A stretch of DNA of 44,314 bases from Candidatus Altiarchaeota archaeon (GTDB lineage: Archaea; Altiarchaeota; Altiarchaeia; IMC4; QMZM01): NCBI GenBank assembly GCA_016931955.1, contig JAFGDV010000043.1, positions 1 through 44,314 of the forward strand, read 5' to 3'. Shown here in pieces: positions 10,771 through 23,891 of the stretch. How positions within the stretch are numbered: position 1 is the first letter of the stretch; every line of letters starts with the position of its first letter. Made by a program: the position numbers and the translations under genes. The notes beneath the pieces were generated by a model that ran no database searches, had not been told where the DNA came from, and saw only the letters and a program-made list of their open reading frames with translations.

Positions 10771-12060
10771 TCAGACCTCCCTCAGATCAACAACCCGCTT
10801 AGCTTTGCCTTCGCTGCGCTGGATGCTCTTAGGCTCCACCAATTCCACAACGGCAGAAACACACAATCCCTCCCTTAGTTCACGCTCAAGCCTATTCTTC
10901 AAGTCTCGGAGAGCTACCTCACTCCCCCTAAAGATCTCCTCCGTTACCTCCACCCTGAAGTTGAGGGAATCCATGGAAGCCTTCCGGTCCACGATGATCT
11001 GATAGCTGTCCCCGATCCCGGGGAAACCCAAGGCAATGTCCTCGAACTGCGAAGGAAAGACGTTAACGCCCCTGATGATCAACATATCATCAGTCCTGCC
11101 CCTAATCCTTGAGATCCGACCATGGGTCCTGCCGCAGGAACACTCTTCATCTACGAAAGCGGTAAGGTCGCCTGTCCGATACCTAAGCAAGGGAAGACCC
11201 TCCCTCGTCAGGGTTGAAAGGACAAGCTCGCCTTTCTCCACAGCATTGCCCTCAGAGTCAACGACCTCCGGGAGGAAGTGATCACGCCACAGATGCATTC
11301 CGCTTTTCTCCTCACACTCTATGCAGACACCGGGACCGCACATCTCAGAGAGGCCATAATTGTCAAATGCATCAATACCGAAACCGAATTCGATCTTCTT
11401 CCGCATGGACTCAGACCAGGGCTCGGCGCCGAAGACACCAATGCGCAGACTAAGATCATCCCCCCTCAAACCCATCTCCTCCATGACCTCCGCCATGTGC
11501 AAGGCATAACTCGGAGTAGAGCTGAACACGGTCGTCTTCAGATCCAGCATCGTTGTAAGCTGCCGCTTCGTGTTGCCTGCGCCGGCAGGGATGACCATAG
11601 AGCCAATACGCTCAGCCCCCTGCTGAAAACCGAAGCCACCGGTAAAGAACGCAAAGTTATAGATCAACTGTACGACGTCCTGCTTAGTGACGCCGACCAT
11701 ATACAGTTCACGAGCCATCAACTCAGACCAATTATCGAGGTCATTCCTCGTATAAGGGAAGATCTTCGGCTTACCCGTGGTGCCGGAAGAAGCATGGATC
11801 CTGACAATCTCTTCAAGAGGGACAGCGGCCAAACCAAAGGGATAATTATCCAATAGATCCTGCCGGGTGGTGAAAGGCAACTTAGAGATATCCTCCAAGG
11901 ATTTGATGTCGTCGGGTTTAATACCCAGGTCATCGAATCTACGGCGATAAAAGGGGACCCTGGAATAGCATATCTTCGCTGTTTTCCTGAGCCTTTTCAA
12001 CTGGAGGGCCTCCAGTTTCTCATGATGCAGGGTCTCCGTCTTTTTGTCCCAGAACGGCAT
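10771..12060 (-). CDS. paaK: Phenylacetate/aryl-acetate-CoA ligase, paralog 1
   Basis: HASSGTTGKP, GAEPWSE, NYGLSE, RYRTGD, GRTDDMLIIRGVNVFPSQ, RSEGKAKR. Confidence 0.93.
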   Translation of the reverse strand: MPFWDKKTETLHHEKLEALQLKRLRKTAKICYSRVPFYRRRFDDLGIKPDDIKSLEDISKLPFTTRQDLLDNYPFGLAAVPLEEIVRIHASSGTTGKPKIFPYTRNDLDNWSELMARELYMVGVTKQDVVQLIYNFAFFTGGFGFQQGAERIGSMVIPAGAGNTKRQLTTMLDLKTTVFSSTPSYALHMAEVMEEMGLRGDDLSLRIGVFGAEPWSESMRKKIEFGFGIDAFDNYGLSEMCGPGVCIECEEKSGMHLWRDHFLPEVVDSEGNAVEKGELVLSTLTREGLPLLRYRTGDLTAFVDEECSCGRTHGRISRIRGRTDDMLIIRGVNVFPSQFEDIALGFPGIGDSYQIIVDRKASMDSLNFRVEVTEEIFRGSEVALRDLKNRLERELREGLCVSAVVELVEPKSIQRSEGKAKRVVDLREV

Positions 12061-12112
12061 ATTATAATAAATACTCTACAATAAATATATCGGAAAAAAA
12101 CGGGGTGGAAAA
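12061..12112. promoter_or_regulatory. Bidirectional promoter between the two paaK paralogs
   Basis: 52-bp AT-rich spacer with TATA-like ATAAATA/TTTATTAT tracts; GGGGTGG RBS before 12113. Confidence 0.5.
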
Positions 12113-13417
12113 ATGTACTGGAACAAGGAGGCTGAGACCCTTAAACCGGACGAACTAAAGAGGCTGCAGGGGAAGAGACTGAGGAAACTGGTAAAATACG
12201 TATACGACAGATCCGCATTATATAGAAACAAATTCAAGGAAGCAGGGATAAAGCCAGCTGATATAAAAGAGATCTCAGACATAACAAAGCTGCCCTACAC
12301 GACGAAGCAGGATTTACGGGACAACTACCCATTCAACATGTTCTGCGTCCCAATGGAGGAGATCGTGAGAATACACGCATCCTCCGGGACAACAGGGAAA
12401 CCAACAGTCGTAGGCTACACGAGGAACGACATAGACATGTGGACTGAGGCGATGGCGAGAACAATAGTGGCGCCAGGAGGCTCAAAGAAGGACATACTGC
12501 ATAATGCGTACGGCTACGGTCTGTTCACCGGCGGCCTGGGATTCCACTACGGCGGAGAACGAGTAGGTTGCGCAGTTATCCCAGTCTCCGGAGGGAACAC
12601 CAAAAGACAGCTATTACTGCTGAAAGACTTCGGGGGAACTATTCTTTCATGCACGCCATCATACTCAATATACCTAGCCGAGGCCGCAGTCAACGAAGGC
12701 ATGGACCCCAAAGAAGACTTCAAGCTGAGGGTAGGAATATTCGGGGCAGAACCATGGTCCAACGCTATGAGAAAGAGGATAGAGGACGCACTGGACATTA
12801 AGGCGACAGACGTTTATGGATTGTCGGAGATATGCGGGCCAGGTGTTGCACAAGAATGCGAAGAACAGGCTGGCGCACACATCTGGTCAGACCACTTCTA
12901 TCCAGAGGTGATCGATCCAAATACAGGGGAACAGGTTGGTGAAGGAGAACAAGGAGAACTGGTATTCACGACACTGACAAAGGAAGGCATCCCATTGATA
13001 AGGTACAGAACCAGGGATCTCACGGTGTTAGACCACGAAAAATGCGCGTGCGGAAGATACCATCCAAGGATGCTGCGTATCAGGGGAAGATCAGACGACA
13101 TGTTGATCATTAGGGGAGTGAACGTTTTCCCCTCACAGATAGAGCATGTCTTGATGAAGTTCTCAGACTTCGCAGCACACTACCTGCTGGTGCTTGGAAA
13201 AAAGGGTCCCTTGGACACCCTAACGGTGAAGGCCGAAGTCACACCCGAAGTGATCAGCGACAAAGTCAAGGACATGATGAAGCTAAAGGCCGCACTGAAA
13301 TCCGAGCTAGAGCAGGCGTTGGGCATCTCCATCGACGTAGAATTAGTGGAACCTGGAACCATACCAAGGAGCGAAGGAAAAGCCGTCAGAATAAAAGACG
13401 AAAGAGGTGATTTATGA
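12113..13417 (+). CDS. paaK: Phenylacetate/aryl-acetate-CoA ligase, paralog 2
   Basis: HASSGTTGKP, YGYGLFTGGLG, VYGLSE, RYRTRD, GRSDDMLIIRGVNVFPSQ. Confidence 0.95.
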   Translation: MYWNKEAETLKPDELKRLQGKRLRKLVKYVYDRSALYRNKFKEAGIKPADIKEISDITKLPYTTKQDLRDNYPFNMFCVPMEEIVRIHASSGTTGKPTVVGYTRNDIDMWTEAMARTIVAPGGSKKDILHNAYGYGLFTGGLGFHYGGERVGCAVIPVSGGNTKRQLLLLKDFGGTILSCTPSYSIYLAEAAVNEGMDPKEDFKLRVGIFGAEPWSNAMRKRIEDALDIKATDVYGLSEICGPGVAQECEEQAGAHIWSDHFYPEVIDPNTGEQVGEGEQGELVFTTLTKEGIPLIRYRTRDLTVLDHEKCACGRYHPRMLRIRGRSDDMLIIRGVNVFPSQIEHVLMKFSDFAAHYLLVLGKKGPLDTLTVKAEVTPEVISDKVKDMMKLKAALKSELEQALGISIDVELVEPGTIPRSEGKAVRIKDERGDL

Positions 13418-13845
13418 TGATAAAACAGATCTCTATCTTCATGAAAAACGAGCCAGGAAGGCTGCTGAAGGTTACCAAGATACTTGCTGATTCAGGAATA
13501 GACATCAGGGCATTGACTGTCGCAGAGACAGCAGACTTCGGAATACTGAGGCTGATAGTCAACGAACCAGACAAAGCCTATAGAGTATTGAAGGAGAAAG
13601 AAATCGCGGTAGTAGAACACGACGTCTTAGGCGTGGAAGTAAACGACAGACCAGGCGGTCTCGCAAGGATAGCTGAAATACTCAACAACGAAGGGATCAA
13701 TATAGAATACATGTATGCGTTCGTCACCAAAAGCCACGAAAAAGCCTACGTAGTCTTAAGATTGGATGACCTCGAAAAGGGGAAAAAGATACTGGAGAAA
13801 AAAGGCATCAGACTGGTGACAACAGAAGAACTGAGCGAAATCTAG
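13414..13845 (+). CDS. Tandem ACT-domain protein (typical paaK neighbour)
   Basis: KQISIFMKNEPGRL, ADFGILRLIV, DRPGGLA, INIEYMYAF. Confidence 0.9.
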   Translation: MMIKQISIFMKNEPGRLLKVTKILADSGIDIRALTVAETADFGILRLIVNEPDKAYRVLKEKEIAVVEHDVLGVEVNDRPGGLARIAEILNNEGINIEYMYAFVTKSHEKAYVVLRLDDLEKGKKILEKKGIRLVTTEELSEI

Positions 13846-14648
13846 ACCAGGAGTGACAGATATTGACGAGGATTATCTGATAGGATCTTCACAGCATCCT
13901 CTCCGAGAATCCTCTCCAACTCTTTTCTCTCCCTTCCAGGATCGGTCCAGGGGAAATCTGTTCCAAATATTACTCGCTCCAAGCCGATCTCATCGACAAC
14001 AGAAAGAAAATCCTTATCTGGAAGATTCCTGGGACAGAAGGCAGTATCATACCACACATTCCTGTAACCGGTAACGCAATGGAGGGAATCCCAGGTCTTA
14101 TAGCCGCCAAGATGAGCCAGCTGAATCACAAGATCAGGGAAGGACTCCAAGACTTGGGTGAAGTGCATGGGGTGAGCATACATGGGCTCGAAATGCAATA
14201 CCTCATCACCGCAGTGGAACGCCAAGCCAAGATCAAGCTCAGATAATCTCTCATAGATCGGGAAAAAACGTTCATCATCTGGATAAAAACGGTGAGCATT
14301 AGGCTGCAACTTTATACCGAAAAGACCCAGTTCTTTGATGCGCTCCAATTCATCTAAGGGATTCTCAAAGGTGGGATGCAGGCCGCCGAAGAATAAAAGG
14401 TGGGGATTAGATCTCTGGGTTTCCGCGCACCAATCATTGAAGGAAACAACATGCTCGGGACGGTTTATCGACGAAAGAATCAAGGATTTGTCTATTCCAC
14501 CAGAGTCCATCGCCGAGAGGATGCCTTCCACTGTTGCGGGATGCGCCGCCTTCGCTCCATAGACCTCCTCTATTCTTGGAACGACTTTGGCTGCGACCTC
14601 GTCAGGGTATATGTGGGCGTGACAGTCCACTATAAAGGCTTCAACCAT
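13842..14648 (-). CDS. Amidohydrolase_2 family metallo-hydrolase
   Basis: IVDCHAH, GIKLQP, FHCG, LAHLGG, YDTA, FGTDFPW. Confidence 0.88.
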   Translation of the reverse strand: MVEAFIVDCHAHIYPDEVAAKVVPRIEEVYGAKAAHPATVEGILSAMDSGGIDKSLILSSINRPEHVVSFNDWCAETQRSNPHLLFFGGLHPTFENPLDELERIKELGLFGIKLQPNAHRFYPDDERFFPIYERLSELDLGLAFHCGDEVLHFEPMYAHPMHFTQVLESFPDLVIQLAHLGGYKTWDSLHCVTGYRNVWYDTAFCPRNLPDKDFLSVVDEIGLERVIFGTDFPWTDPGRERKELERILGEDAVKILSDNPRQYLSLLV

Positions 14649-14686
14649 AATAGGACTAAAGATTACGTAGATAAAAAAAAAGGTCG

Positions 14687-14738
14687 GTTTCAGTTTCTGT
14701 TACAGTTGTTTCAGTCTAGGATATAGCGTGTTTCATCG
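14687..14738 (+). promoter_or_regulatory. Four-box GTT(T/A)CA direct-repeat promoter, copy 1
   Basis: GTTTCA 14687, GTTACA 14699, GTTTCA 14708, TATA 14722, GTTTCATCG 14730; GAGGTGA RBS downstream. Confidence 0.75.
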
Positions 14739-14769
14739 AAGTAATCAAAAAAAAAAGAGGTGAAATTGG

Positions 14770-15213
14770 ATGGAAAAAAAGTTTCTGGTTGCCGGCTTCG
14801 CAGCCCTCCTCATAGCAGGATTTGTGGTTGCTGGGGCTACGATGCGCGGCGGAAGACCGGGTCTTCCAGGGGCTCCTGGAGATCATACAGCCATGCTGCA
14901 AGACCTCGGTTTATCCGAGAACTCAACCCCTGAGGAAGTAAGAGAAGCCATGTTTAACAGGAGACTGGAGGAACTAGGCCTGACGGAGGACTCCACAATA
15001 AAGGAGCTGAGGGAGGCTATGGAAGCAAAGAGTCAGACCATGGGGGAGGAAAGACTGATGGACTTAAAGGAAAGGCTTGGCCTATCAGAGGACGCAACCG
15101 AGGAAGACATAGAGGAAGCCCTCAAAGAAAAACAGGGAGACTGTAAGGTATTTGGCCGCGGGAGAGGACCACATGACAGGGGAATGGGACTCTCCATCTA
15201 CGACATCATTTGA
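14770..15213 (+). CDS. Secreted acidic helical protein with three LGL(S/T)E repeats
   Basis: Signal peptide; LGLSENSTPEEVREA / LGLTEDSTIKELREA / LGLSEDATEEDIEEA; Gly/Arg/Met-rich termini. Confidence 0.8.
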   Translation: MEKKFLVAGFAALLIAGFVVAGATMRGGRPGLPGAPGDHTAMLQDLGLSENSTPEEVREAMFNRRLEELGLTEDSTIKELREAMEAKSQTMGEERLMDLKERLGLSEDATEEDIEEALKEKQGDCKVFGRGRGPHDRGMGLSIYDII

Positions 15214-15262
15214 GGACAAACCCGCACACAAGATGTGCAGCGTGTCCTCTTCTTTTATTTTT
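15212..15262 (+). terminator. Stem-loop plus T-tract
   Basis: GAGGACA/TGTCCTC outer stem, GCACA/TGTGC inner stem, then TTCTTTTATTTTT. Confidence 0.55.
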
Positions 15263-15296
15263 CTAAACCGATATAGTAAGGTGTGAGGTGAAACAG

Positions 15297-15566
15297 GTGA
15301 GTACAACAACAACACTCTTCAATCGTACCGCAAGAGAGTTAATGGATCGAGGTCGAGCACCCTTCTTCGGGCCTGAATTATTCGGCATACCGACCTTCTA
15401 CCTATGGAATCTGTTGGTGGTATTGATCATCGCGTTGATCTTCTACTGGCTCCTAAGAAGCTCAAGAATACATGAAACCCCGATGGATGTCTTAAAGAAG
15501 AGATACGTTCGAGGAGAAATAGACAAAGAAACCTTTGAGGCCATGAAAAAGGACATAACGGATTGA
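15297..15566 (+). CDS. Single-TM SHOCT-domain protein
   Basis: One TM followed by PMDVLKKRYVRGEIDKETFEAMKKDI; GAGGTGA RBS before GTG 15297 (ATG 15342 is an alternative). Confidence 0.85.
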   Translation: MSTTTTLFNRTARELMDRGRAPFFGPELFGIPTFYLWNLLVVLIIALIFYWLLRSSRIHETPMDVLKKRYVRGEIDKETFEAMKKDITD

Positions 15567-15568
15567 AG

Positions 15569-15979
15569 ATGGAAGTCTCCGAGAAGCGGCTTGCTGTGGC
15601 AATAATCGCGGTATTCTGTCTGGGCGTGATGCTCTCCATAATAAACGGATACTACATAGAGGATACCGGGTCCTCGATACCCTTGACGGTCTACGCCATG
15701 ACCGCCGTCGCAATGGTTGTTGGGGCGTTAATCGTCCTATTGTTCCAGTGGAAGATCAGCCAGAAACAGATGCAACGACTACTGAAAGCACTGCCAGAGG
15801 ACGAACACAAGATAGTTGAATTGCTACTGAACGACGGGAAGATGGAGCAAACATATATTGTGGCGGAAAGCGGCCTCTCGAAGGTGAAGGTTTCAAGGAT
15901 CCTGGCGAAACTGGAGCAGAGGAAGGTAATAGAGAAGAAACCCTTAGGGAACACCAATTTGATAAAGCTAAGGATATGA
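15569..15979 (+). CDS. Membrane-anchored (2 TM) winged-HTH transcriptional regulator
   Basis: Two TM helices then LPEDEHKIVELL...MEQTYIVAESGLSKVKVSRILAKLEQRKVIEKKPLGNTNLI. Confidence 0.85.
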   Translation: MEVSEKRLAVAIIAVFCLGVMLSIINGYYIEDTGSSIPLTVYAMTAVAMVVGALIVLLFQWKISQKQMQRLLKALPEDEHKIVELLLNDGKMEQTYIVAESGLSKVKVSRILAKLEQRKVIEKKPLGNTNLIKLRI

Positions 15980-15991
15980 CACTGCAAGGCT

Positions 15992-16043
15992 GTTTCATTT
16001 TATGTTACAGGAGTTTCAGTGCAGGTTATAGGTAGTTTCATCG
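15992..16043 (+). promoter_or_regulatory. Four-box GTT(T/A)CA direct-repeat promoter, copy 2
   Basis: GTTTCA 15992, GTTACA 16004, GTTTCA 16013, TATA 16027, GTTTCATCG 16035; offsets identical to copy 1. Confidence 0.75.
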
Positions 16044-16070
16044 TTCTACTTGCATAGGTGAGGGAAAAAC

Positions 16071-16427
16071 ATGGAGAAGACATGCACAATACTATGTATC
16101 CTCATCATATGCTGCGGATGCCTGAGCAGCCAGGAAACGGTTCAAGAGGAAGAACGGGAAATACCCCAAGGAGGGTATGGTGGGAGAAAACCCCCAGGCA
16201 ATATGACACCAGATATGAGGCCTCCTGGCAATATGACTCATGGTATGAGAGGACTGGGCTTGGATATGACAGAACACGATCTAGATGGTGACGGCCTTCT
16301 CAGTGAGGAAGAAATGATCGCTGCCCGAGAAGCCATGATGGATAATCCTCGATTCATCGAGAGAATCGACTCAGACGGAGACGGCATATTAAACGAAGAA
16401 GAAAAAAACAAAAAACCAACTCAATAA
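16071..16427 (+). CDS. Small lipoprotein with two EF-hand loops and PPGNMT repeats
   Basis: CCGC lipobox; DLDGDGLLSEEE and DSDGDGILNEEE; 30-nt tandem duplication. Confidence 0.8.
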   Translation: MEKTCTILCILIICCGCLSSQETVQEEEREIPQGGYGGRKPPGNMTPDMRPPGNMTHGMRGLGLDMTEHDLDGDGLLSEEEMIAAREAMMDNPRFIERIDSDGDGILNEEEKNKKPTQ

Positions 16428-16440
16428 AGGTGATAAAAAA

Positions 16441-18108
16441 ATGGGAAAAACAACAACGTATGGGATTATTGTGTTGTTCCTATTCGCTGTAGGGGCATGC
16501 GCTGTCAGCGCATATGATGCGACGAATGTGGTAGTAGACTTCGACAAAACAGAGGCTGATGAAAGCCTGCTAGCAGGCGAAAGCGGCGTCCTGAATCTGG
16601 TCATAAAAAATACTGGAGACTATGACGCAGAAGACGTTGAAGTATGGATTCAAAGTAATGCAAAAATAACCTCAAGTAAGAGGCTCTACGTAGGGGTGAT
16701 AGAAGGCGGAGAGTCTAAAACCCTGCTTTTAACGCTGAAGGTAAATGACGACGCAGCCACGGGGCTCGCAGTCATACCAGTAGAGATAAGCTACGACGGA
16801 TACGATAAATACGAGAGACGGAAATATGACCAGCACACGAGCTGGCAGATCCCTCTTAGGATAGAAGGCGACCCGCTGTTTCAGGTAAAACCAGCTAAGA
16901 CGACATTCTACAGAGACAACGTGGATGAGCTGATTCTACAAGTAAAAACAGAGAACTCTGTGAGGAACCTGCAGGCAACCCTGACATCAGAATGCCTGAC
17001 CATAATAGGCTCGTCTAGGGCGTATATTGGAGACATCAACACTGGGAAAGAATTCAACATAACATATGATATAAAGCCGACCGAGGAAGGGGCGTGCACC
17101 GCAGATCTGACGCTAAGCTATTCAGATTCCTTCGGCAGCAAGACAAGCGACGAAATAAACATCGGATTAAACATCGAGGAAGCCGGAGTAGATTTCAGGA
17201 TAACGAACATCAGTTATGATGCGACGGGTCCGGGCCAGACCATGAAACTAAGGCTTTCAGTGAAGAACGTAGGAGAAGCAGATGCAAAGGACACAACCCT
17301 CTCCCTGTCGCTCTCAGACCCCTTCACGACAGCGGACACAACGGAGAAATATGTTGGAAGAGTGAATGCGGGAGAAACAGTGGACGCAGAATTCAATCTT
17401 GCGGTCTCATGGGACGCTGAAACAAAGGTATACTCTGTCCCACTGAACATAGGATACAAGGTCGGCGGTACATCATACACTGCCAAGAAAGACGTTGGAG
17501 TGGACGTTGGTGGACAGGTCAGGTTGGAGATAATCAATGTAGAATCCAGCAGGGGCTCGCTGCAGGTCGACGTAGCCAACGTAGGCACCAGGACCGCGGA
17601 GAGCATTAAGGCGACATTAGTTGTCGGGGATGGAGCAAGATTTGTGAGCTCTTCCACCGCAAGCCAGACAACACGCCAGACCGGCGGCGGCTTAGGAATA
17701 ATACCTGGAATGGGTCGCAGCAGACCCACTACTTCAGGGGATACTGGAAACACCGACCAAACACCCCAAGCTATGGAAGCAACGAACACGTCAGGTCAAC
17801 CCCAGACCTACGTCGCCTATAAGTCGGACATCAAGCCGACAAAGCAGACCACGTTCACATTCGACGCCAGCATCTCAGGGACAGCAACCCTGGTCTTCGA
17901 ATACACTGGAGCCAACAACGAGAGGATAACTCAGAGAGAACAGATAAGCCTGGGTGGAACGAACTCTATGACTGGAGTGACTGGATTCACTGCGGCAACA
18001 GGCTCCAGGGGCAGCACCGGAATAACAACATATCTCATCTACGGAGTGGCTGTTTTGGTGGTTGTTTTCGTCGCATATAAGTTGTATAGGAAACGAAAGA
18101 ATAAGTGA
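16441..18108 (+). CDS. COG1361 S-layer-domain (Ig-like/CARDB repeat) protein with C-terminal TM anchor
   Basis: Signal peptide; repeated KNTG/KNVG/ANVG beta modules; TM plus basic tail; directly upstream of a MacB-type ABC. Confidence 0.85.
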   Translation: MGKTTTYGIIVLFLFAVGACAVSAYDATNVVVDFDKTEADESLLAGESGVLNLVIKNTGDYDAEDVEVWIQSNAKITSSKRLYVGVIEGGESKTLLLTLKVNDDAATGLAVIPVEISYDGYDKYERRKYDQHTSWQIPLRIEGDPLFQVKPAKTTFYRDNVDELILQVKTENSVRNLQATLTSECLTIIGSSRAYIGDINTGKEFNITYDIKPTEEGACTADLTLSYSDSFGSKTSDEINIGLNIEEAGVDFRITNISYDATGPGQTMKLRLSVKNVGEADAKDTTLSLSLSDPFTTADTTEKYVGRVNAGETVDAEFNLAVSWDAETKVYSVPLNIGYKVGGTSYTAKKDVGVDVGGQVRLEIINVESSRGSLQVDVANVGTRTAESIKATLVVGDGARFVSSSTASQTTRQTGGGLGIIPGMGRSRPTTSGDTGNTDQTPQAMEATNTSGQPQTYVAYKSDIKPTKQTTFTFDASISGTATLVFEYTGANNERITQREQISLGGTNSMTGVTGFTAATGSRGSTGITTYLIYGVAVLVVVFVAYKLYRKRKNK

Positions 18109-19289
18109 AGATGATAGACGTAGCCTTAAAGAACGTATTCCGGCAGAGGGTGAGAAGCGGCCTCACCATACTGGGGATAGCGATAGGTATAGGCTTGATC
18201 CTGGCATTAGGCGCCATCGGCGAAGGACTGAACAAACAGATCAGGGAATCATTCGGCGACATAGCAGGAGTCATAGACGTCAGAGCCGATTTTGAAAACG
18301 ATGAAGGCATCAGCGACGACGTGATCGAAGGAATAAAGAAGATCGATGGTGTGACCAGCGTCGTACCTGTCGGAGAATACCAGATCAGAAGAGGAAGCCG
18401 AGGAATGGGCGGCATGATGTTCAGGTTCGGGGGAGTTGGGGGAGCATCTATGACCTTCACCGGCATATTCCCAGAAGACCAGGACTACCTCATAGGGGAG
18501 CATATCATAGCGGAGGAAGGCAGGAAGCTCGACGAATCAGATGATAGAGAATACGTTGTTGTCTTAGGTAGCACTACTGCAGAAAACCAGTACCTCAACC
18601 TAGGGGATGAGATCGAGTATGAGAGGAGAGAGGATGGAGAAGACGAAGAAATAGAGAGCTACTACTTTGAGGTGATAGGTATCCTGGAAGAAACCGGAGA
18701 CAGCAGCATAGACGAAGCCGCTTTTGTACTATTAAGGACGATGCAGGAACTCGAAGACGACGAAACAATAACCAGCCTTAAGGTCAGGATCAGCGACGTC
18801 GAATTGGTCGAGACCATCACGGAAGACATAAATTACTACTCCGATGAAGTGATGGCGTCCTCACCTCTGTCGATGGTCAGGAACATGGAGTCGACGCTTT
18901 CGACGCTGCAGATGGCAGTCTACGGGATCGCTGCAATATCCCTCCTAGTCGGCGGCATCGGGGTCATGAACACGATGATCATGTCGGTTATGGAGCGCAG
19001 ACGAGAGATAGGGGTGATGAAAGCCATCGGGGCGACAACGACGACCATACTTATTCAGGTACTTGAGGAGTCAGCTTTTCTGAGCGGAATAGGCGGATTA
19101 ACAGGTCTTATGCTCGGCTACGCCTCAACAGGGATCATAACACAGTACACGACCTTTACAACTATACTGACGCCGGAACTCATCTCCTTAGGCCTGGGGT
19201 TTTCAGTGATACTTGGCATGGGTGCTGGATTATATCCCGCATGGAGTGCTTCCCAATTGGATCCAATAGAGGTGCTGCGATATGAATAA
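18105..19289 (+). CDS. MacB/FtsX-family ABC permease
   Basis: RSGLTILGIAIG, ISLLVGGIGVMNTMIMSVMERRREIGVMKAIGA, YPAWSASQLDPIEVLRYE. Confidence 0.93.
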   Translation: MKMIDVALKNVFRQRVRSGLTILGIAIGIGLILALGAIGEGLNKQIRESFGDIAGVIDVRADFENDEGISDDVIEGIKKIDGVTSVVPVGEYQIRRGSRGMGGMMFRFGGVGGASMTFTGIFPEDQDYLIGEHIIAEEGRKLDESDDREYVVVLGSTTAENQYLNLGDEIEYERREDGEDEEIESYYFEVIGILEETGDSSIDEAAFVLLRTMQELEDDETITSLKVRISDVELVETITEDINYYSDEVMASSPLSMVRNMESTLSTLQMAVYGIAAISLLVGGIGVMNTMIMSVMERRREIGVMKAIGATTTTILIQVLEESAFLSGIGGLTGLMLGYASTGIITQYTTFTTILTPELISLGLGFSVILGMGAGLYPAWSASQLDPIEVLRYE

Positions 19290-19959
19290 TGGAGAAATAG
19301 TCTGCACGGGCCTGGTTAAGACCTACAATGTGGGACAACCTAATGAATTCAAGGCACTTAGGGGCTTGGACTTAACACTATCCGAAGGCGAATGTGCAAG
19401 CATCATCGGGCCCTCAGGTTCTGGGAAATCAACGCTCCTGAACTTGATGAGCTGCCTTGACACGCCAACAGAAGGCGAAGTCTACATAGAGGGTATTGAC
19501 ATCAATTCATTGAACGGCTTCGAGAAGGCCCGGCTTAGAAGAGAGAAACTGGGATTCATCTTCCAGCAGTTCAACCTCATAAGGGGGATGACATCCTATG
19601 AGAACATCGAGCTACCCATGAGATTCAAGGGTCTGCCCCCCAAGGAGAGGAAGAAGCGAGTCACCGAATTATTAGATCTCTTCGGCTTGGAGGGAAAGGA
19701 AAGAAACAAACCCACCGAATTATCTGGAGGAGAACAACAGAGGGTCGCGATCGCAAGGGCACTGGCTAACAACCCAAAGATCATCCTAGCAGATGAACCA
19801 ACCGGAAACCTTGACACAAAAACAGGGGAAAAAATAATGGACCTGCTCCTGAGACTTAACCAAGAGGAAAAGAAAACACTCGTCATCGTAACCCACGATC
19901 AGAGGATAGCACAGCAAACATGCAAGGTGGTAGAGATACAAGACGGCAGAATAAAATAG
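19282..19959 (+). CDS. LolD/MacB-type ABC ATP-binding protein
   Basis: GPSGSGKST, LGFIFQQFNL, LSGGEQQRVAIARAL, ADEPTGNLD, VTHD. Confidence 0.94.
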   Translation: MNNGEIVCTGLVKTYNVGQPNEFKALRGLDLTLSEGECASIIGPSGSGKSTLLNLMSCLDTPTEGEVYIEGIDINSLNGFEKARLRREKLGFIFQQFNLIRGMTSYENIELPMRFKGLPPKERKKRVTELLDLFGLEGKERNKPTELSGGEQQRVAIARALANNPKIILADEPTGNLDTKTGEKIMDLLLRLNQEEKKTLVIVTHDQRIAQQTCKVVEIQDGRIK

Positions 19960-19966
19960 GGACAAA

Positions 19967-21208
19967 TCAACCCGCAGTCGGATCGCTGACCCTCCCCAGG
20001 AACAGGATATTCCCAGAGGACTTCTGCTGGATAATAAAGATGAAGGGGTGATCTGCGTTAAAGATTATCCTCTCCTGTGGTTCTGGCGTGGCACTCAAAG
20101 TCATTATCACCGCCGTAGCCGCAGCAGCCTCCGTGCCCTCCTCATTAACCCCGACGAAGGCCTGATGGATGACGCTGCTTATATAGAGGTCGCGTTTCCC
20201 ATCCATCCCAGAGAAATCCGCCTCATATGAGAATGCAGTCAGCATGCCCATCGCCTTTAAGGTTTCGGCCATAAAATACTTGGTCTCGAACTTGAATCGG
20301 GGCAGATAGAGTTCATCTATCTTCTCCTCCCTGAGGGCCTTCCGCCACGCTGAGAGCTTCTCTGCGGAGAGAGACTCCTCCAAGGAAGTTATGTCGTCGT
20401 CTTTAGGTAGGAGTATCAGCATCGACAGTTCACCGCCGGAATAAGGCAATTCCAGGATCTGCGCATCAGCAGTTTCAGTGTAGTTGAAGTCTTCCATGAA
20501 CATGGACATCATATCAACTTTGACTGTTTTCTCTCCACCCACCCTAAAGTCGCGTTCCTCAGTCAGCGATTCATTAAACTGCTTAACCCAGGTGCCTTTA
20601 AAGTATATCGCATTGGTGAGGACCAGACGCGTCAAAGGAGTGATAGCTCCAGACGGGATCAGATCCTTTATCTTGTCGTTCGTGTGCTCTTCAACCCAAC
20701 TATTTATTGTCATGCGAGACTTCTCTGTTTCCAAGACAAAGTCCAAGTTCGTCGCTTTTCCACTATAGTATTCTTCTACGACTTTGAAGTATTCTGGAAG
20801 GAACACAAAGTCTCTCTGCGCCCACAAGGCGTTCGCAGTGCTCAGTGCATACGCCTTTCCTTCTCTGTTGATCTCTGCGTTGGCTGCGGAGAAACCTTGC
20901 CTGCGCCCAGAATCATTCTCCGGGAAATGGAAGACTGCCTGGATCTCCTCCGCCGTCTCTCCTCGAGCACCCTCATAGGTCATAGCCAGAGCAGATGAGA
21001 TACTATAAGGCGAAAAAAAGACGTTACCTTCCTGCGACTTATATTCTGAGTAGAGTTCGAAGGCGAACCGGTTGTTGGCTTCCACGACGCCGGATGCGGA
21101 GCTAGATGTTGTATTATCCCTATTTTCCTGCGTATCGATGCAGCCGCATAGGAAGACATCCAATACGAGCGCTGCAATAGTCAATGAGATCATAATCTTC
21201 AAATCCAT
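19967..21208 (-). CDS. Serpin, lipoprotein-anchored, with inhibitory-type hinge
   Basis: NVFFSPYSI, INSWVEEHTNDKI, NAIYFKGTW, EEGTEAAAATAV hinge, FNADHPFIF; LCGC lipobox. Confidence 0.95.
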   Translation of the reverse strand: MDLKIMISLTIAALVLDVFLCGCIDTQENRDNTTSSSASGVVEANNRFAFELYSEYKSQEGNVFFSPYSISSALAMTYEGARGETAEEIQAVFHFPENDSGRRQGFSAANAEINREGKAYALSTANALWAQRDFVFLPEYFKVVEEYYSGKATNLDFVLETEKSRMTINSWVEEHTNDKIKDLIPSGAITPLTRLVLTNAIYFKGTWVKQFNESLTEERDFRVGGEKTVKVDMMSMFMEDFNYTETADAQILELPYSGGELSMLILLPKDDDITSLEESLSAEKLSAWRKALREEKIDELYLPRFKFETKYFMAETLKAMGMLTAFSYEADFSGMDGKRDLYISSVIHQAFVGVNEEGTEAAAATAVIMTLSATPEPQERIIFNADHPFIFIIQQKSSGNILFLGRVSDPTAG

Positions 21209-21777: not shown

Positions 21778-23340
21778 ATGACTGAAAGAAGACTGCTGTC
21801 TGGGAATGAGGCGATAGCAAGAGGCGCTATAGATGCGGGAATTTCGATCGCGACATCCTATCCTGGAACGCCTTCAACAGAGATCCTGGAATACATAGCA
21901 GCAAACGCTGACGGAATACACGCTGAGTGGTCGGTTAACGAGAAGGTGGCGCTGGAGACAGCCATCGGAGCATCATATTCAGGAGTTAGGGCAATATGCT
22001 CGATGAAGCACGTTGGGGTGAATGTGGCAGCAGACCCCCTGATGACCCTAGCATACACTGGAGTCAAAGGCGGTTTAGTGTTGGTTGCAGCCGATGATCC
22101 AGGAATGCATTCATCACAGAACGAGCAGGACTCACGGCACTACGTGAAGGCGGCGAAGATACTCTGCCTCGAACCATGTGACTCACAGGAGGCCTACGAT
22201 ATGAGCAAGGAGGCCTTCAACATCTCAGAGGAGACCAAGCTGCCCATAATGCTGAGGACGATGACTAGGATATCACATACTAGCTCTCCTGTGAACGTGG
22301 AGAAAGCGGAGAAGAAAAAGAAGCCCTCCTTAGAGATAGATGCCAGAGAATGGGTCATGGTCCCAGCAAATGCGCGTGTAAGACATAAGGTGTTGAATGA
22401 AAAACAGCCCCTTCTGAGGGAGTTGTCTGAAGGATCAAGGTTCAACAAGGTAGTGAAGAAAGGAAACGAAAAAAAAGGCATCATCGCGTTCGGTTCAGCA
22501 TACAACTATGTTGGAGAATTCTACGATGGAAGGTCTGCGCTGCTGAGGGTGTCAACGTATCCGTTCCCTATGAAGATGATCAATGAATTCTTGGAGGATC
22601 TGGAGAAGGTCATTGTCTTAGAGGAAGGAGACCCGCTGCTGGAGGAAGCTGTAAGGTGTCTCCACTCCAACGTGCATGGGAGATTAAACGGAGAAGTACC
22701 CCTGGAGGGAGAGCTCACGCCAGAGATAGCGGCAAAGGTCTTAGGTAAGGGCACTCCAGGAGAGAAAAAACCAGGGATAGATCTGCCTCCAAGGCCGCCG
22801 CGTCTATGCCCAGGATGCCCCCACCAGAGCCTATACAATGCACTGAAGAAGGTGGAGACCTCAATCATCACAGGGGATATTGGATGCTATACTCTAGGGG
22901 TGAGGTTTGGAACACTGCATACTTGTCTGTGCATGGGCGCCGGCATAAGCCAGGCAGCTGGAATATCCCACACAGGAATAGGGAAGGTAGCAGCAGTAAT
23001 AGGAGAGTCAACGTTCCTCCACTCAGGAATAACGGCATTGATGAATGCGGTCTACAATAAGGCGAATATGTTGGTGATAATAATGGACAACAGCGCAGTA
23101 GCTATGACAGGACACCAGCCGACACCTCTAACAGGGGTCACGGCGACAGGGGATATGGGAGGAAAGATCACGCTAGAGGAAATAGTGAAGTCATGTAATG
23201 TCGCCTCCGTGGATGTGGTAGACCCATACAAGGAGGTCGAAGTCGAGAAATTGCTCAGAAAGAGACTGGATGAAAAAGGAGTTAAGGTAGTCATCTCACG
23301 CGGACCATGCATCATCATCAAGAAGAGGATGACGAAATGA
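21778..23340 (+). CDS. iorA: Indolepyruvate:ferredoxin oxidoreductase alpha subunit (short form)
   Basis: SGNEAIARG, YPGTPSTE, NEKVALE, MKHVG, SSQNEQDSR, LCPGCPH, GDIGCY, DNSAVAMTGHQP. Confidence 0.95.
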   Translation: MTERRLLSGNEAIARGAIDAGISIATSYPGTPSTEILEYIAANADGIHAEWSVNEKVALETAIGASYSGVRAICSMKHVGVNVAADPLMTLAYTGVKGGLVLVAADDPGMHSSQNEQDSRHYVKAAKILCLEPCDSQEAYDMSKEAFNISEETKLPIMLRTMTRISHTSSPVNVEKAEKKKKPSLEIDAREWVMVPANARVRHKVLNEKQPLLRELSEGSRFNKVVKKGNEKKGIIAFGSAYNYVGEFYDGRSALLRVSTYPFPMKMINEFLEDLEKVIVLEEGDPLLEEAVRCLHSNVHGRLNGEVPLEGELTPEIAAKVLGKGTPGEKKPGIDLPPRPPRLCPGCPHQSLYNALKKVETSIITGDIGCYTLGVRFGTLHTCLCMGAGISQAAGISHTGIGKVAAVIGESTFLHSGITALMNAVYNKANMLVIIMDNSAVAMTGHQPTPLTGVTATGDMGGKITLEEIVKSCNVASVDVVDPYKEVEVEKLLRKRLDEKGVKVVISRGPCIIIKKRMTK

Positions 23341-23891
23341 AGTACAACATGCTCATAGTCGGAGTGGGCGGGCAGGGAATACTGCTGGTTTCTGAGATAA
23401 TCTCAAAGGCGGCGATGAAAAGCGGGTTTTACGTGAAGAAATCCGAGACCCATGGAATGGCTCAACGCGGGGGCTCAGTTATGACGCACATAAGGTTCGC
23501 TGACGAAGAAGTCCACAGCCCATTGATTCCAAAGGGTTCATTGGATATGCTGCTAGCATTCGAACCACTGGAGGCTCTAAGGTACCTCAGCTACCTCGGA
23601 GAAGACTCCAAACTCATAGTGAACAGCAACCCAGTGAATGTGGAAAACTATCCACCAATCGAGGAAGTCCTCAAAGAGATCAGAAAACAGGAGAACTCAC
23701 TCCTAGTTGATGCGAAAAAGCTTGCAATAGAAGCAGGACACCCGCTTACACAGAACACCGTGATGCTGGGAGCAGCAAGCAAGCGCCTGCCGATAAAGAA
23801 AGAAGTCCTTGAAGAAAATATAAGAAAGGGTGTGAAGCGGGCGCTAGAGGAAAACCTGAAGGCATTCAAGCTAGGATCGGCGAGCACATGA
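23337..23891 (+). CDS. iorB: Indolepyruvate:ferredoxin oxidoreductase beta subunit
   Basis: GVGGQG, ETHGMAQRGGSV, SPLI, EPLEALR; ATGA overlap with iorA. Confidence 0.95.
   Translation: MKYNMLIVGVGGQGILLVSEIISKAAMKSGFYVKKSETHGMAQRGGSVMTHIRFADEEVHSPLIPKGSLDMLLAFEPLEALRYLSYLGEDSKLIVNSNPVNVENYPPIEEVLKEIRKQENSLLVDAKKLAIEAGHPLTQNTVMLGAASKRLPIKKEVLEENIRKGVKRALEENLKAFKLGSAST

Follow-up and report, generated by a model that had tools for sequence, protein, structure and literature searches.

A candidate membrane-bound one-component regulator and its twin GTTTCA arrays in an envelope gene cluster of an Altiarchaeota archaeon

The subject of this report is a gene cluster on a contig of Candidatus Altiarchaeota archaeon (JAFGDV010000043.1, assembly GCA_016931955.1), of which a stretch of 44,314 nucleotides is here called the window. 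Between positions 14686 and 19959, on the forward strand throughout, two promoter regions with one and the same array of repeats, P1 and P2, stand before two gene units: hel147, a SHOCT protein and a membrane-anchored winged helix-turn-helix (wHTH) protein behind P1, and an EF-hand protein, a CARDB protein, a MacB-type permease and an ATP-binding cassette (ABC) ATPase behind P2. We propose that the wHTH protein, referred to below as the regulator, acts as a one-component system on both arrays.

The first gene behind P1, hel147 (14770..15213), encodes an acidic protein of 147 residues that is secreted or anchored at its N terminus and consists of an N-terminal hydrophobic segment and three LGL(S/T)E(D/N)(A/S)T-x-EE repeats. 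The original prediction, made from the DNA letters of the window, had listed a secreted helical repeat protein downstream of the second promoter; such a protein exists, but behind the first. Next comes a single-pass membrane protein with a C-terminal SHOCT domain (15288..15566, likely start GTG 15297 after AGGTGA; PF09851, residues 65-90, 33.9 bits against a cut-off of 27), a domain conserved in 14 aligned sequences, those of the window and 13 orthologs. It is followed by the regulator gene (15569..15979), whose product of 136 residues combines a transmembrane (TM) hairpin with a C-terminal DUF7343 winged helix. The two genes had been described as translationally coupled; they are adjacent, but lie 2 nucleotides apart rather than overlapping, with ATG 15569 as the start that relatives use. 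The regulator gene is directly preceded by a SHOCT match in the window and in 20 of 20 ortholog loci, and the gap between SHOCT stop and wHTH start is 1-13 nucleotides in the 19 resolvable loci of these 21. According to an excerpt of a study of PSP (phage shock protein) systems, SHOCT-like domains are predicted to be intracellular and to anchor other domains to the inner leaflet (PMC11237479), which fits a putative role of the SHOCT protein as a partner beneath the membrane.

Behind P2, a small secreted and probably lipid-anchored protein (16071..16427) shows two canonical DxDGDG...E loops in its translation, DLDGDGLLSEEE and DSDGDGILNEEE (EF-hand_1, 27.6 bits against a cut-off of 25.4); it is lineage-specific, and other small secreted proteins take its position in other genomes. 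A CARDB-domain surface protein of 555 residues (16441..18108; Pfam CARDB, 45.3 bits against 22.7), labeled COG1361 in the original prediction, has a signal sequence and is anchored in the membrane at its C terminus. It precedes the permease (18105..19289), whose start overlaps the CARDB stop, and the ATPase of MacB/LolD type (19282..19959), whose start overlaps the permease stop and which closes the operon. Pfam matches to MacB_PCD (100.9 bits), FtsX (74.3) and ABC_tran (130.7) define a MacB-type exporter of the FtsX family; NCBIfam MacB/LolCDE models match below their equivalog cut-offs, so the exporter is of MacB type and not an ortholog of MacB or LolCDE. Possible transport of antimicrobial peptides is mentioned for SalXY-like ABC loci of archaea in an excerpt of PMC4158269. 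The original calls of a SHOCT protein, a two-TM wHTH protein, an EF-hand protein and a MacB-type ABC transporter all stand, each with Pfam matches above cut-off. The products of the P1 and P2 units are entirely extracytoplasmic or membrane-bound, and in Pfam and NCBIfam scans the regulator holds the sole DNA-binding domain of the conserved cluster; no kinase or receiver domain was found by Pfam in the nine proteins scanned.

P1 (14686..14738) and P2 (15991..16043) are putative promoter/operators built to the formula GTTTCA-N6-GTTACA-N3-GTTTCA-N16(TATA-like)-GTTTCATCG. Read directly, P1 has TGTTTCA-type boxes 1, 3 and 4 at 14687 (box 1 spanning 14687-14692), 14708 and 14730, the last as GTTTCATCG, with GTTACA as box 2 at 14699 and the TATA-like heptamer GATATAG at 14720-14726; P2 has its four boxes at 15992 (15992-15997), 16004 (GTTACA), 16013 and 16035 (GTTTCATCG) and the heptamer GTTATAG at 16025-16031. 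In both copies, the elements following box 1 thus lie at +12, +21, +33 (the heptamer) and +43, which confirms the twin architecture with boxes at equal offsets that had been claimed. The copies are 1.3 kb apart and identical at 42 of 52 aligned positions; by our own count on this 52-bp alignment, the identities amount to 27 of 27 in the boxes and 15 of 25 in the spacers. When the 18-base pattern of boxes 1-3 was searched with up to two mismatches, P1 and P2 were the sole matches in the window, with none in 100 shuffles, and the sole matches in the whole genome (1,550,521 bases, 92% complete). They are also its sole four-box clusters of GTTWCA. With a weight matrix derived from relatives, P1 reaches 64.3 and P2 55.5 bits, and no other place in the genome exceeds 8 bits. 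GTTTCA taken singly occurs in the window about as often as expected (27 times against 25), which marks the array, and not the hexamer, as the unit. The genome scan suggested with the original prediction therefore yields two sites only, on which ground we rejected a mobile or scattered repeat.

With the TATA-like centre at about +36 and the usual archaeal spacing, transcription would start at about +62, that is, near 14749 for P1 and near 16054 for P2, and the predicted leaders of about 21 and 17 nucleotides contain AGGTGA-type ribosome-binding sites. Box 4 would then occupy about -20 to -14 relative to the start, and box 3 ends about 6 bases 5' of the TATA-like element, just upstream of the expected position of the transcription factor B (TFB) recognition element (BRE), so that boxes 3 and 4 bracket the TATA-like element. 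In most of 18 instances examined in relatives, the first gene-like open reading frame (ORF) starts at +59 to +94, and later in five; starts in this range fit transcription from about +62 into leaderless or short-leader mRNAs. Among the RNA runs listed, none contains the DNA of 14600-20000.

The regulator has TM helices at residues 8-26 and 41-59, joined by an outer loop of 14 residues without Lys or Arg, for which we call it the short-loop form. The flanks of the hairpin are rich in Lys and Arg, which places both ends in the cytoplasm. Residues 78-136 match DUF7343 (PF24034) at 56.1 bits against a cut-off of 27.6 and include the recognition helix GLSKVKVSR and the wing KKPLGNTNL, both invariant in 29 aligned relatives (of 142 found). 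Hairpin and loop are as strongly conserved as these DNA-binding parts, with N26, G27, T33, G34 and P38 invariant, suggesting that the membrane part is more than an anchor. An AlphaFold model from 29 sequences (mean pLDDT 79.1, pTM 0.48) predicts helices at 3-33 and 39-60, which a short linker connects to a winged helix of three helices and a two-stranded wing. Foldseek neighbors of the C-terminal domain are MarR, ArsR/SmtB, BlaI/MecI and TrmBL2-type winged helices, with expectation values (E) from 1e-4 upward and a TM-score of about 0.4 over the whole model; many of them are titled repressors. The comparison with OmpR/ToxR winged helices that the original prediction drew survives as an analogy only, the domain being MarR/ArsR/BlaI-like by fold and DUF7343 by Pfam. 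Assignment to the MarR family itself was rejected: MarR (20.9 bits, cut-off 24.6) and MarR_2 (24.1, cut-off 27) stay below threshold, and apart from the TM hairpin and the winged helix the model has only one short helix, with the likeness restricted to the wHTH core. A search against the sequences of solved structures gave SigF region 4 (E 0.001) and an Lrs14-like protein (E 0.005) as best matches and no close solved relative.

A profile search of the regulator against 1.84 billion representatives returned 1926 matches at E<=0.001, 96 at 1e-10 and 10 at 1e-30. Among the 150 matches listed, many are about 300 residues long and match only TM2 and the winged helix at their C-terminal end. The four such DUF7343 proteins that we read, three of 311-316 residues and one of 516, all have a hydrophobic segment at the N terminus, then a long middle region, a single TM helix and the wHTH; the 516-residue protein extends well beyond the latter. 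Compared with these, the branch of the regulator has a TM hairpin at the N terminus in place of an ectodomain, and its Altiarchaeota members differ from DUF7343 at large in having a SHOCT neighbor throughout, together with a defined putative operator and target set. A full-text literature search for the family name DUF7343 found no paper. Distant TM-wHTH paralogues also occur as tandem gene pairs in one family of the order (loci L124-L128 in our numbering; G033:C5, G027:C15, G027:C19, G034:C18 and G039:C16), with no MacB operon or GTTWCA cluster beside these pairs, and three proteins of 286-290 residues contain two matched stretches (P0146, P0148 and P0153), which in P0146, the one read, are two TM-wHTH units.

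Across the order, the pattern of boxes 1-3 gave 49 matches in 28 of 49 genomes against 5 for a reversed control, and the pattern of boxes 1, 3 and 4 gave 62 matches in 32 of 49 genomes against 0; 3 of these 62 look like chance, with two mismatches, no box 2 and no TATA-like element. When about 12 kb around each of 20 regulator orthologs was scored with the weight matrix, 20 of 20 loci had at least one array site, degenerate in four genomes, so that the motif check proposed at the outset came out positive at every locus fetched. Among 42 unique instances chosen by boxes 1-3 alone, box 4 at +43 reads exactly GTTTCA in 37 and GTATCA in 1, and the remaining 4 show unrelated hexamers there and are probably chance matches. 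In the same 42 instances, positions free of the search pattern are conserved as well: T+7 to T+9 in 37-41, T+11 in 41 and G+18 in 36, along with T+20, WTWW at +34 to +37, T+42 and C+50, while adjacent spacers carry about 0 bits. The resulting consensus, tGTTTCA-nTTTnTG-yw-AC-r-GnTGTTTCA-N7-WTWW-N5-tGTTTCAnC, consists of three TGTTTCA heptamers, 21 and 22 bp apart, and an auxiliary element, the GYWACR box between the first two. Box 2 was counted in 56 instances selected through boxes 1, 3 and 4: GCAACA stands there in 17, GTTACA in 11 and GTTACG in 5, and the others are scattered; the TATA-like element is poorly conserved in the 56 short-loop instances (GATATA 8, CTTATC 5, GTTATC 4).

Each site lies upstream and on the same strand of one of three modules: a hel147-type or other small secreted gene, SHOCT-wHTH, or CARDB-MacB-ABC. 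Four genomes (L064, L067, L068 and L071) have three separate array-bearing promoters, one per module, and in the genus of the window two modules are merged behind P1; hel147 is a core member of the putative regulon in relatives. The array is kept across four families of the order and its spacers are randomised, which bears out the selection on shared sites postulated in the original prediction. Array sites also occur on other contigs of relatives, scoring 71 bits at L081 (G004:C112), 32 at L079 (G028:C106) and 53 at L080 (G005:C4). The genes behind them encode other small secreted or membrane proteins, among them two membrane proteins of DUF4405 and some rich in Cys and His that show DxDGDGxCD-type motifs. 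Envelope proteins that may bind metal or calcium, like the EF-hand protein of the window, thus recur as putative regulon members.

Is the array inherited with the regulator or with the transporter? A regulator ortholog at E 1e-48 or better is found in 22 of the 41 genomes searched with the protein, and all 22 have array matches. Of the 19 genomes lacking one, two have chance-looking matches only and two have a true array; both of the latter are incomplete assemblies (75% and 60%), and the contig of one of these (L028) breaks off within SHOCT. An orthologous CARDB-MacB-ABC operon (permease identity 55-65% by tblastn) persists in seven genomes without a short-loop regulator ortholog, and in these seven there is no SHOCT (E up to 0.001) and no array site above 12 bits. 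Six of them (L072-L077) instead have a complete, divergently transcribed DUF7343 paralogue of 186-224 residues, in the order TM, outer loop of about 60-110 residues, TM, DUF7343 winged helix, and the seventh (L078) has the N-terminal 99 residues of such a long-loop paralogue at a contig edge. The long-loop paralogues match DUF7343 at 27.7-50.8 bits, and their recognition helices resemble that of the short-loop form (S-R-V-K-V/T-H-R against S-K-V-K-V-S-R).

Their loci have arrays of another design. Of the seven long-loop intergenic regions, five contain GTTTCA-N4-GTTACA-T-GTTTCA-N4-GTTTCA-N17(TATA)-GTTTCA, three of them the full form and two a shorter one. The boxes of L075 are of GTTACA type and lie on the opposite strand, and those of L072 are GTTTCA boxes with different spacings. 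Long-loop loci have good TTTATA boxes, tightly flanked by array boxes. One genome, G004 (L114; contigs C112 and C217), has the short-loop and long-loop systems together, each with its own box spacing (the long-loop form here having 163 residues), and the difference in spacing may insulate two regulators that share one hexamer. Judged from these genome comparisons, the array follows the regulator and not the ABC operon. The earlier suggestion that the TM-wHTH protein controls both promoters gains from this, as the array is confined to the cluster and co-inherited with the wHTH gene, not with the ABC genes.

Related GTTTCA arrays stand beside two other branches of the regulator family. Scanning one genome per species gave 40 loci; three of them encode full-length short-loop homologs with 41-44% identity, in contigs titled Hydrothermarchaeota, 'archaeon' and Methanosarcinales. 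Each of the three genes is divergent from an operon of an FtsX permease and an ABC ATPase (MacB-type). The intergenic region contains GTTTCA-N5-TGAAAC in 3 of 3 and, on the strand of the ABC operon, GTTTCA-N16-GTTTCA in 3 of 3 (the first box being ATTTCA in L105), with a TATA-like run inside the N16 spacer in 2 of 3.

We consider it likely that the window encodes an autoregulated envelope regulon run by the membrane-bound one-component regulator at 15569-15979. The N-terminal hairpin would hold this protein in the membrane and its C-terminal winged helix directly beneath it, and we infer that the winged helix binds the array: several copies, as an oligomer, would dock on the TGTTTCA direct repeats at 0, 21 and 43. 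Repeats 21-22 bp apart are separated by two helical turns, which puts the sites on approximately one face of the DNA. As the same array heads the P1 and P2 units, the regulator would control its own level together with the extracytoplasmic and membrane-bound product set. Occupied boxes 3 and 4 would block TFB and RNA polymerase, making repression the resting state, to be released by a signal; our preference for repression over activation is only slight. The signal may be perceived within or at the membrane, by the hairpin and loop, by the SHOCT partner or by the transporter itself.

The array might instead be a real operator at which the regulator activates, a reading that we regard as possible but doubtful. 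Boxes 1-3 would then recruit TATA-binding protein (TBP) and TFB to a weak BRE/TATA, with box 4 tuning the promoter or being cleared on a signal, in a positive-feedback inducible module like BcrR-bcrAB or ArnR-arlB. The position of boxes 1-3 directly upstream of the BRE site, where archaeal activators bind, is in keeping with this, as are the poorly conserved TATA-like element of the short-loop class and the description of BcrR and ArnR/ArnR1 as activators. However, box 4 equals boxes 1 and 3 in conservation, and its place is between TATA and the predicted start, a region in which a bound protein, such as an archaeal repressor, usually blocks the polymerase; the tight flanking of good TTTATA boxes at the long-loop loci and the many proteins titled repressors among the fold neighbors also speak for repression. 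We think it unlikely that another, unlinked transcription factor binds the array and that the membrane wHTH merely anchors DNA or serves as a transporter adaptor that does not bind DNA. The genome does encode other wHTH proteins, including a second weak match on contig C37, but with the exception of one 60%-complete genome the array is confined to genomes with the regulator or traces of its operon, and it is gone where the regulator has been replaced, though the ABC operon stays. That two other branches of the family adjoin GTTTCA arrays and that recognition helix and wing are invariant likewise argues against an unlinked factor.

Action of the repeats in RNA, as a 5' leader or a protein-binding RNA element, is a further reading. 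We hold it to be very improbable, as a TATA-like element lies inside the array at a fixed offset and ORFs begin from +59, which leaves no room for an array-containing leader if the start follows TATA; moreover, direct repeats do not pair with one another, and Rfam has no family in 14500-16200 at E up to 1. Least credible of all is that the twin copies are a recent local promoter duplication or remnants of a mobile repeat, with boxes under no selection. Their identity and their proximity would suit such an origin, yet the genome contains just two copies, orientation and distance to the gene starts are fixed, and the boxes are kept while spacers are randomised across four families and in contigs titled as other lineages.

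Several points weigh against an autoregulated, repressing envelope regulon as we propose it. The invariance of the boxes in the set of 42 instances is partly imposed by the search pattern (the counts at +43, and those of box 2 in the 56 instances, are free of it), box 2 is variable, and genomes of one order are non-independent samples. Co-inheritance of array and regulator is partly built in, because one array adjoins the regulator gene itself. The box phasing at long-loop loci does not fall entirely on one helix face, which weakens the idea of one-face docking, and the homologs in contigs titled as other lineages have no SHOCT neighbor at E up to 0.001 (three loci), so SHOCT is not required for the family as a whole. 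The membrane-integrated regulators ToxR, CadC, BcrR and ArnR are activators, contrary to the sign that we prefer. Finally, 'envelope stress' should be read as a label taken from the products and from bacterial parallels, not as a finding.

How does this system relate to those already described? Membrane-bound one-component regulators are known, and the system of the window would work like them but departs from the architecture of each. In proteobacteria, ToxR/ToxS, TcpP/TcpH and CadC are membrane-integrated and bind direct repeats, some with a small co-transcribed membrane partner to which the SHOCT protein of the window may be likened. ToxR and CadC consist of an N-terminal OmpR-type winged helix, a single TM helix and a periplasmic sensor domain, whereas the regulator has no OmpR-type (Trans_reg_C) Pfam match, two N-terminal TM helices and its wHTH at the C terminus. 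The BceRS-BceAB systems of Firmicutes pair a transporter of the MacB/FtsX family with a two-TM sensor that has almost no outer loop, and the transporter is thought to deliver the signal. Bce-type sensors are, however, histidine kinases working with a response regulator, and the cluster of the window has neither kinase nor receiver domain; we use the parallel as a hypothesis on sensing and not as a claim of membership.

In the bacterial BcrR of Enterococcus faecalis, an XRE-type HTH at the N terminus precedes four TM helices. BcrR activates on bacitracin, and its operator lacks the phased direct repeats around a TATA box that the array of the window shows. In an excerpt of the work on this system (PMC3968067), BcrR is presented as a one-component TM regulator that is encoded beside the ABC transporter operon bcrAB, controls it and, like the regulator of the window, shows no obvious extracellular domain; there, too, the action of a membrane-bound protein at its promoter is an open question. 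Closest in domain of life are ArnR and ArnR1 of Sulfolobus acidocaldarius, which the excerpts of two papers describe as membrane-bound one-component activators (PMC6396743; PMC13286277). Like the regulator, they are archaeal, membrane-bound and one-component; they oligomerize and bind promoters of genes for cell-surface structures. As described in these excerpts, however, ArnR has its HTH at the N terminus and the membrane segments behind it, the reverse of the order in the window, and is an activator under Ser/Thr phosphorylation, whereas the cluster of the window has no linked kinase; its targets are archaellum and pili genes, and the putative targets in the window include an ABC exporter. 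By these comparisons, ArnR, BcrR and ToxR would be analogues of the regulator and not its relatives. No description of the circuit was found in the literature searched, which lacks most subscription journals.

A bolder reading, for which we see only an outside chance, is that of a kinase-free archaeal counterpart of transporter-coupled or 'flux' sensing. Tethered to the membrane, three or four DUF7343 winged helices would press the TATA box of a target promoter against it like a clamp, and the clamp would be released or re-set by intramembrane contacts with the MacB-type transporter, the SHOCT partner or both. The GTTTCA operator grammar would then be ancient and common to at least three archaeal lineages, with spacing variants (0/12/21/43 against 0/10/17/27/50) that insulate paralogous systems in one cell, as in G004.

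The large, unstudied archaeal family DUF7343 gains a candidate DNA element, a candidate target set and a natural regulator swap that links both. ArnR and ArnR1 are the sole characterized membrane-bound archaeal regulators so described in the literature consulted. The reagents for asking how a membrane-fixed protein controls an archaeal TATA/TFB promoter are short, namely a soluble domain of 77 residues and a putative operator of 53 bp; what exporters of MacB type do in archaea alongside CARDB proteins is a further question. With an uncultivated organism and a regulon defined computationally, the value of the analysis lies in a well-posed hypothesis.

The product of hel147 has no named family in Pfam or NCBIfam. 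A set of 23 sequences, hel147 and 22 relatives, gave sub-threshold short-motif matches only (Mu-like_Pro in 20, the first helix of DnaJ in 18), and the best score in a language-model atlas was 0.83 (0.81 for DUF2680), too low for such scores to be meaningful. We also considered a CpxP/Spy-like periplasmic modulator and rejected it as unsupported, Metal_resist matching 2 of 23 sequences at E values no better than 0.007. The LGLxxNAT or LNLxxNAT repeat of hel147 relatives often holds an N-x-S/T sequon and possibly represents a glycosylated module of the cell surface. A T-rich run, TTCTTTTATTTTT, occupies 15250-15262 between the hel147 and SHOCT genes, with GATATAG after it at 15270-15276. Partial termination, internal initiation of transcription or both could take place here, and either would give a high ratio of secreted protein to regulator. 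The reverse strand at 19967-21208, converging on the end of the ABC operon, encodes a serpin of full length (Pfam Serpin, E 2.9e-126); its signal sequence contains Cys, and no array precedes its gene. By reading of translations only, the cluster is flanked on this side by two ORFs resembling indolepyruvate oxidoreductase subunits (21778-23891), and on the other by two divergent ORFs of about 430 residues resembling phenylacetate-CoA ligase, with an adjoining small ORF (10771-13845).

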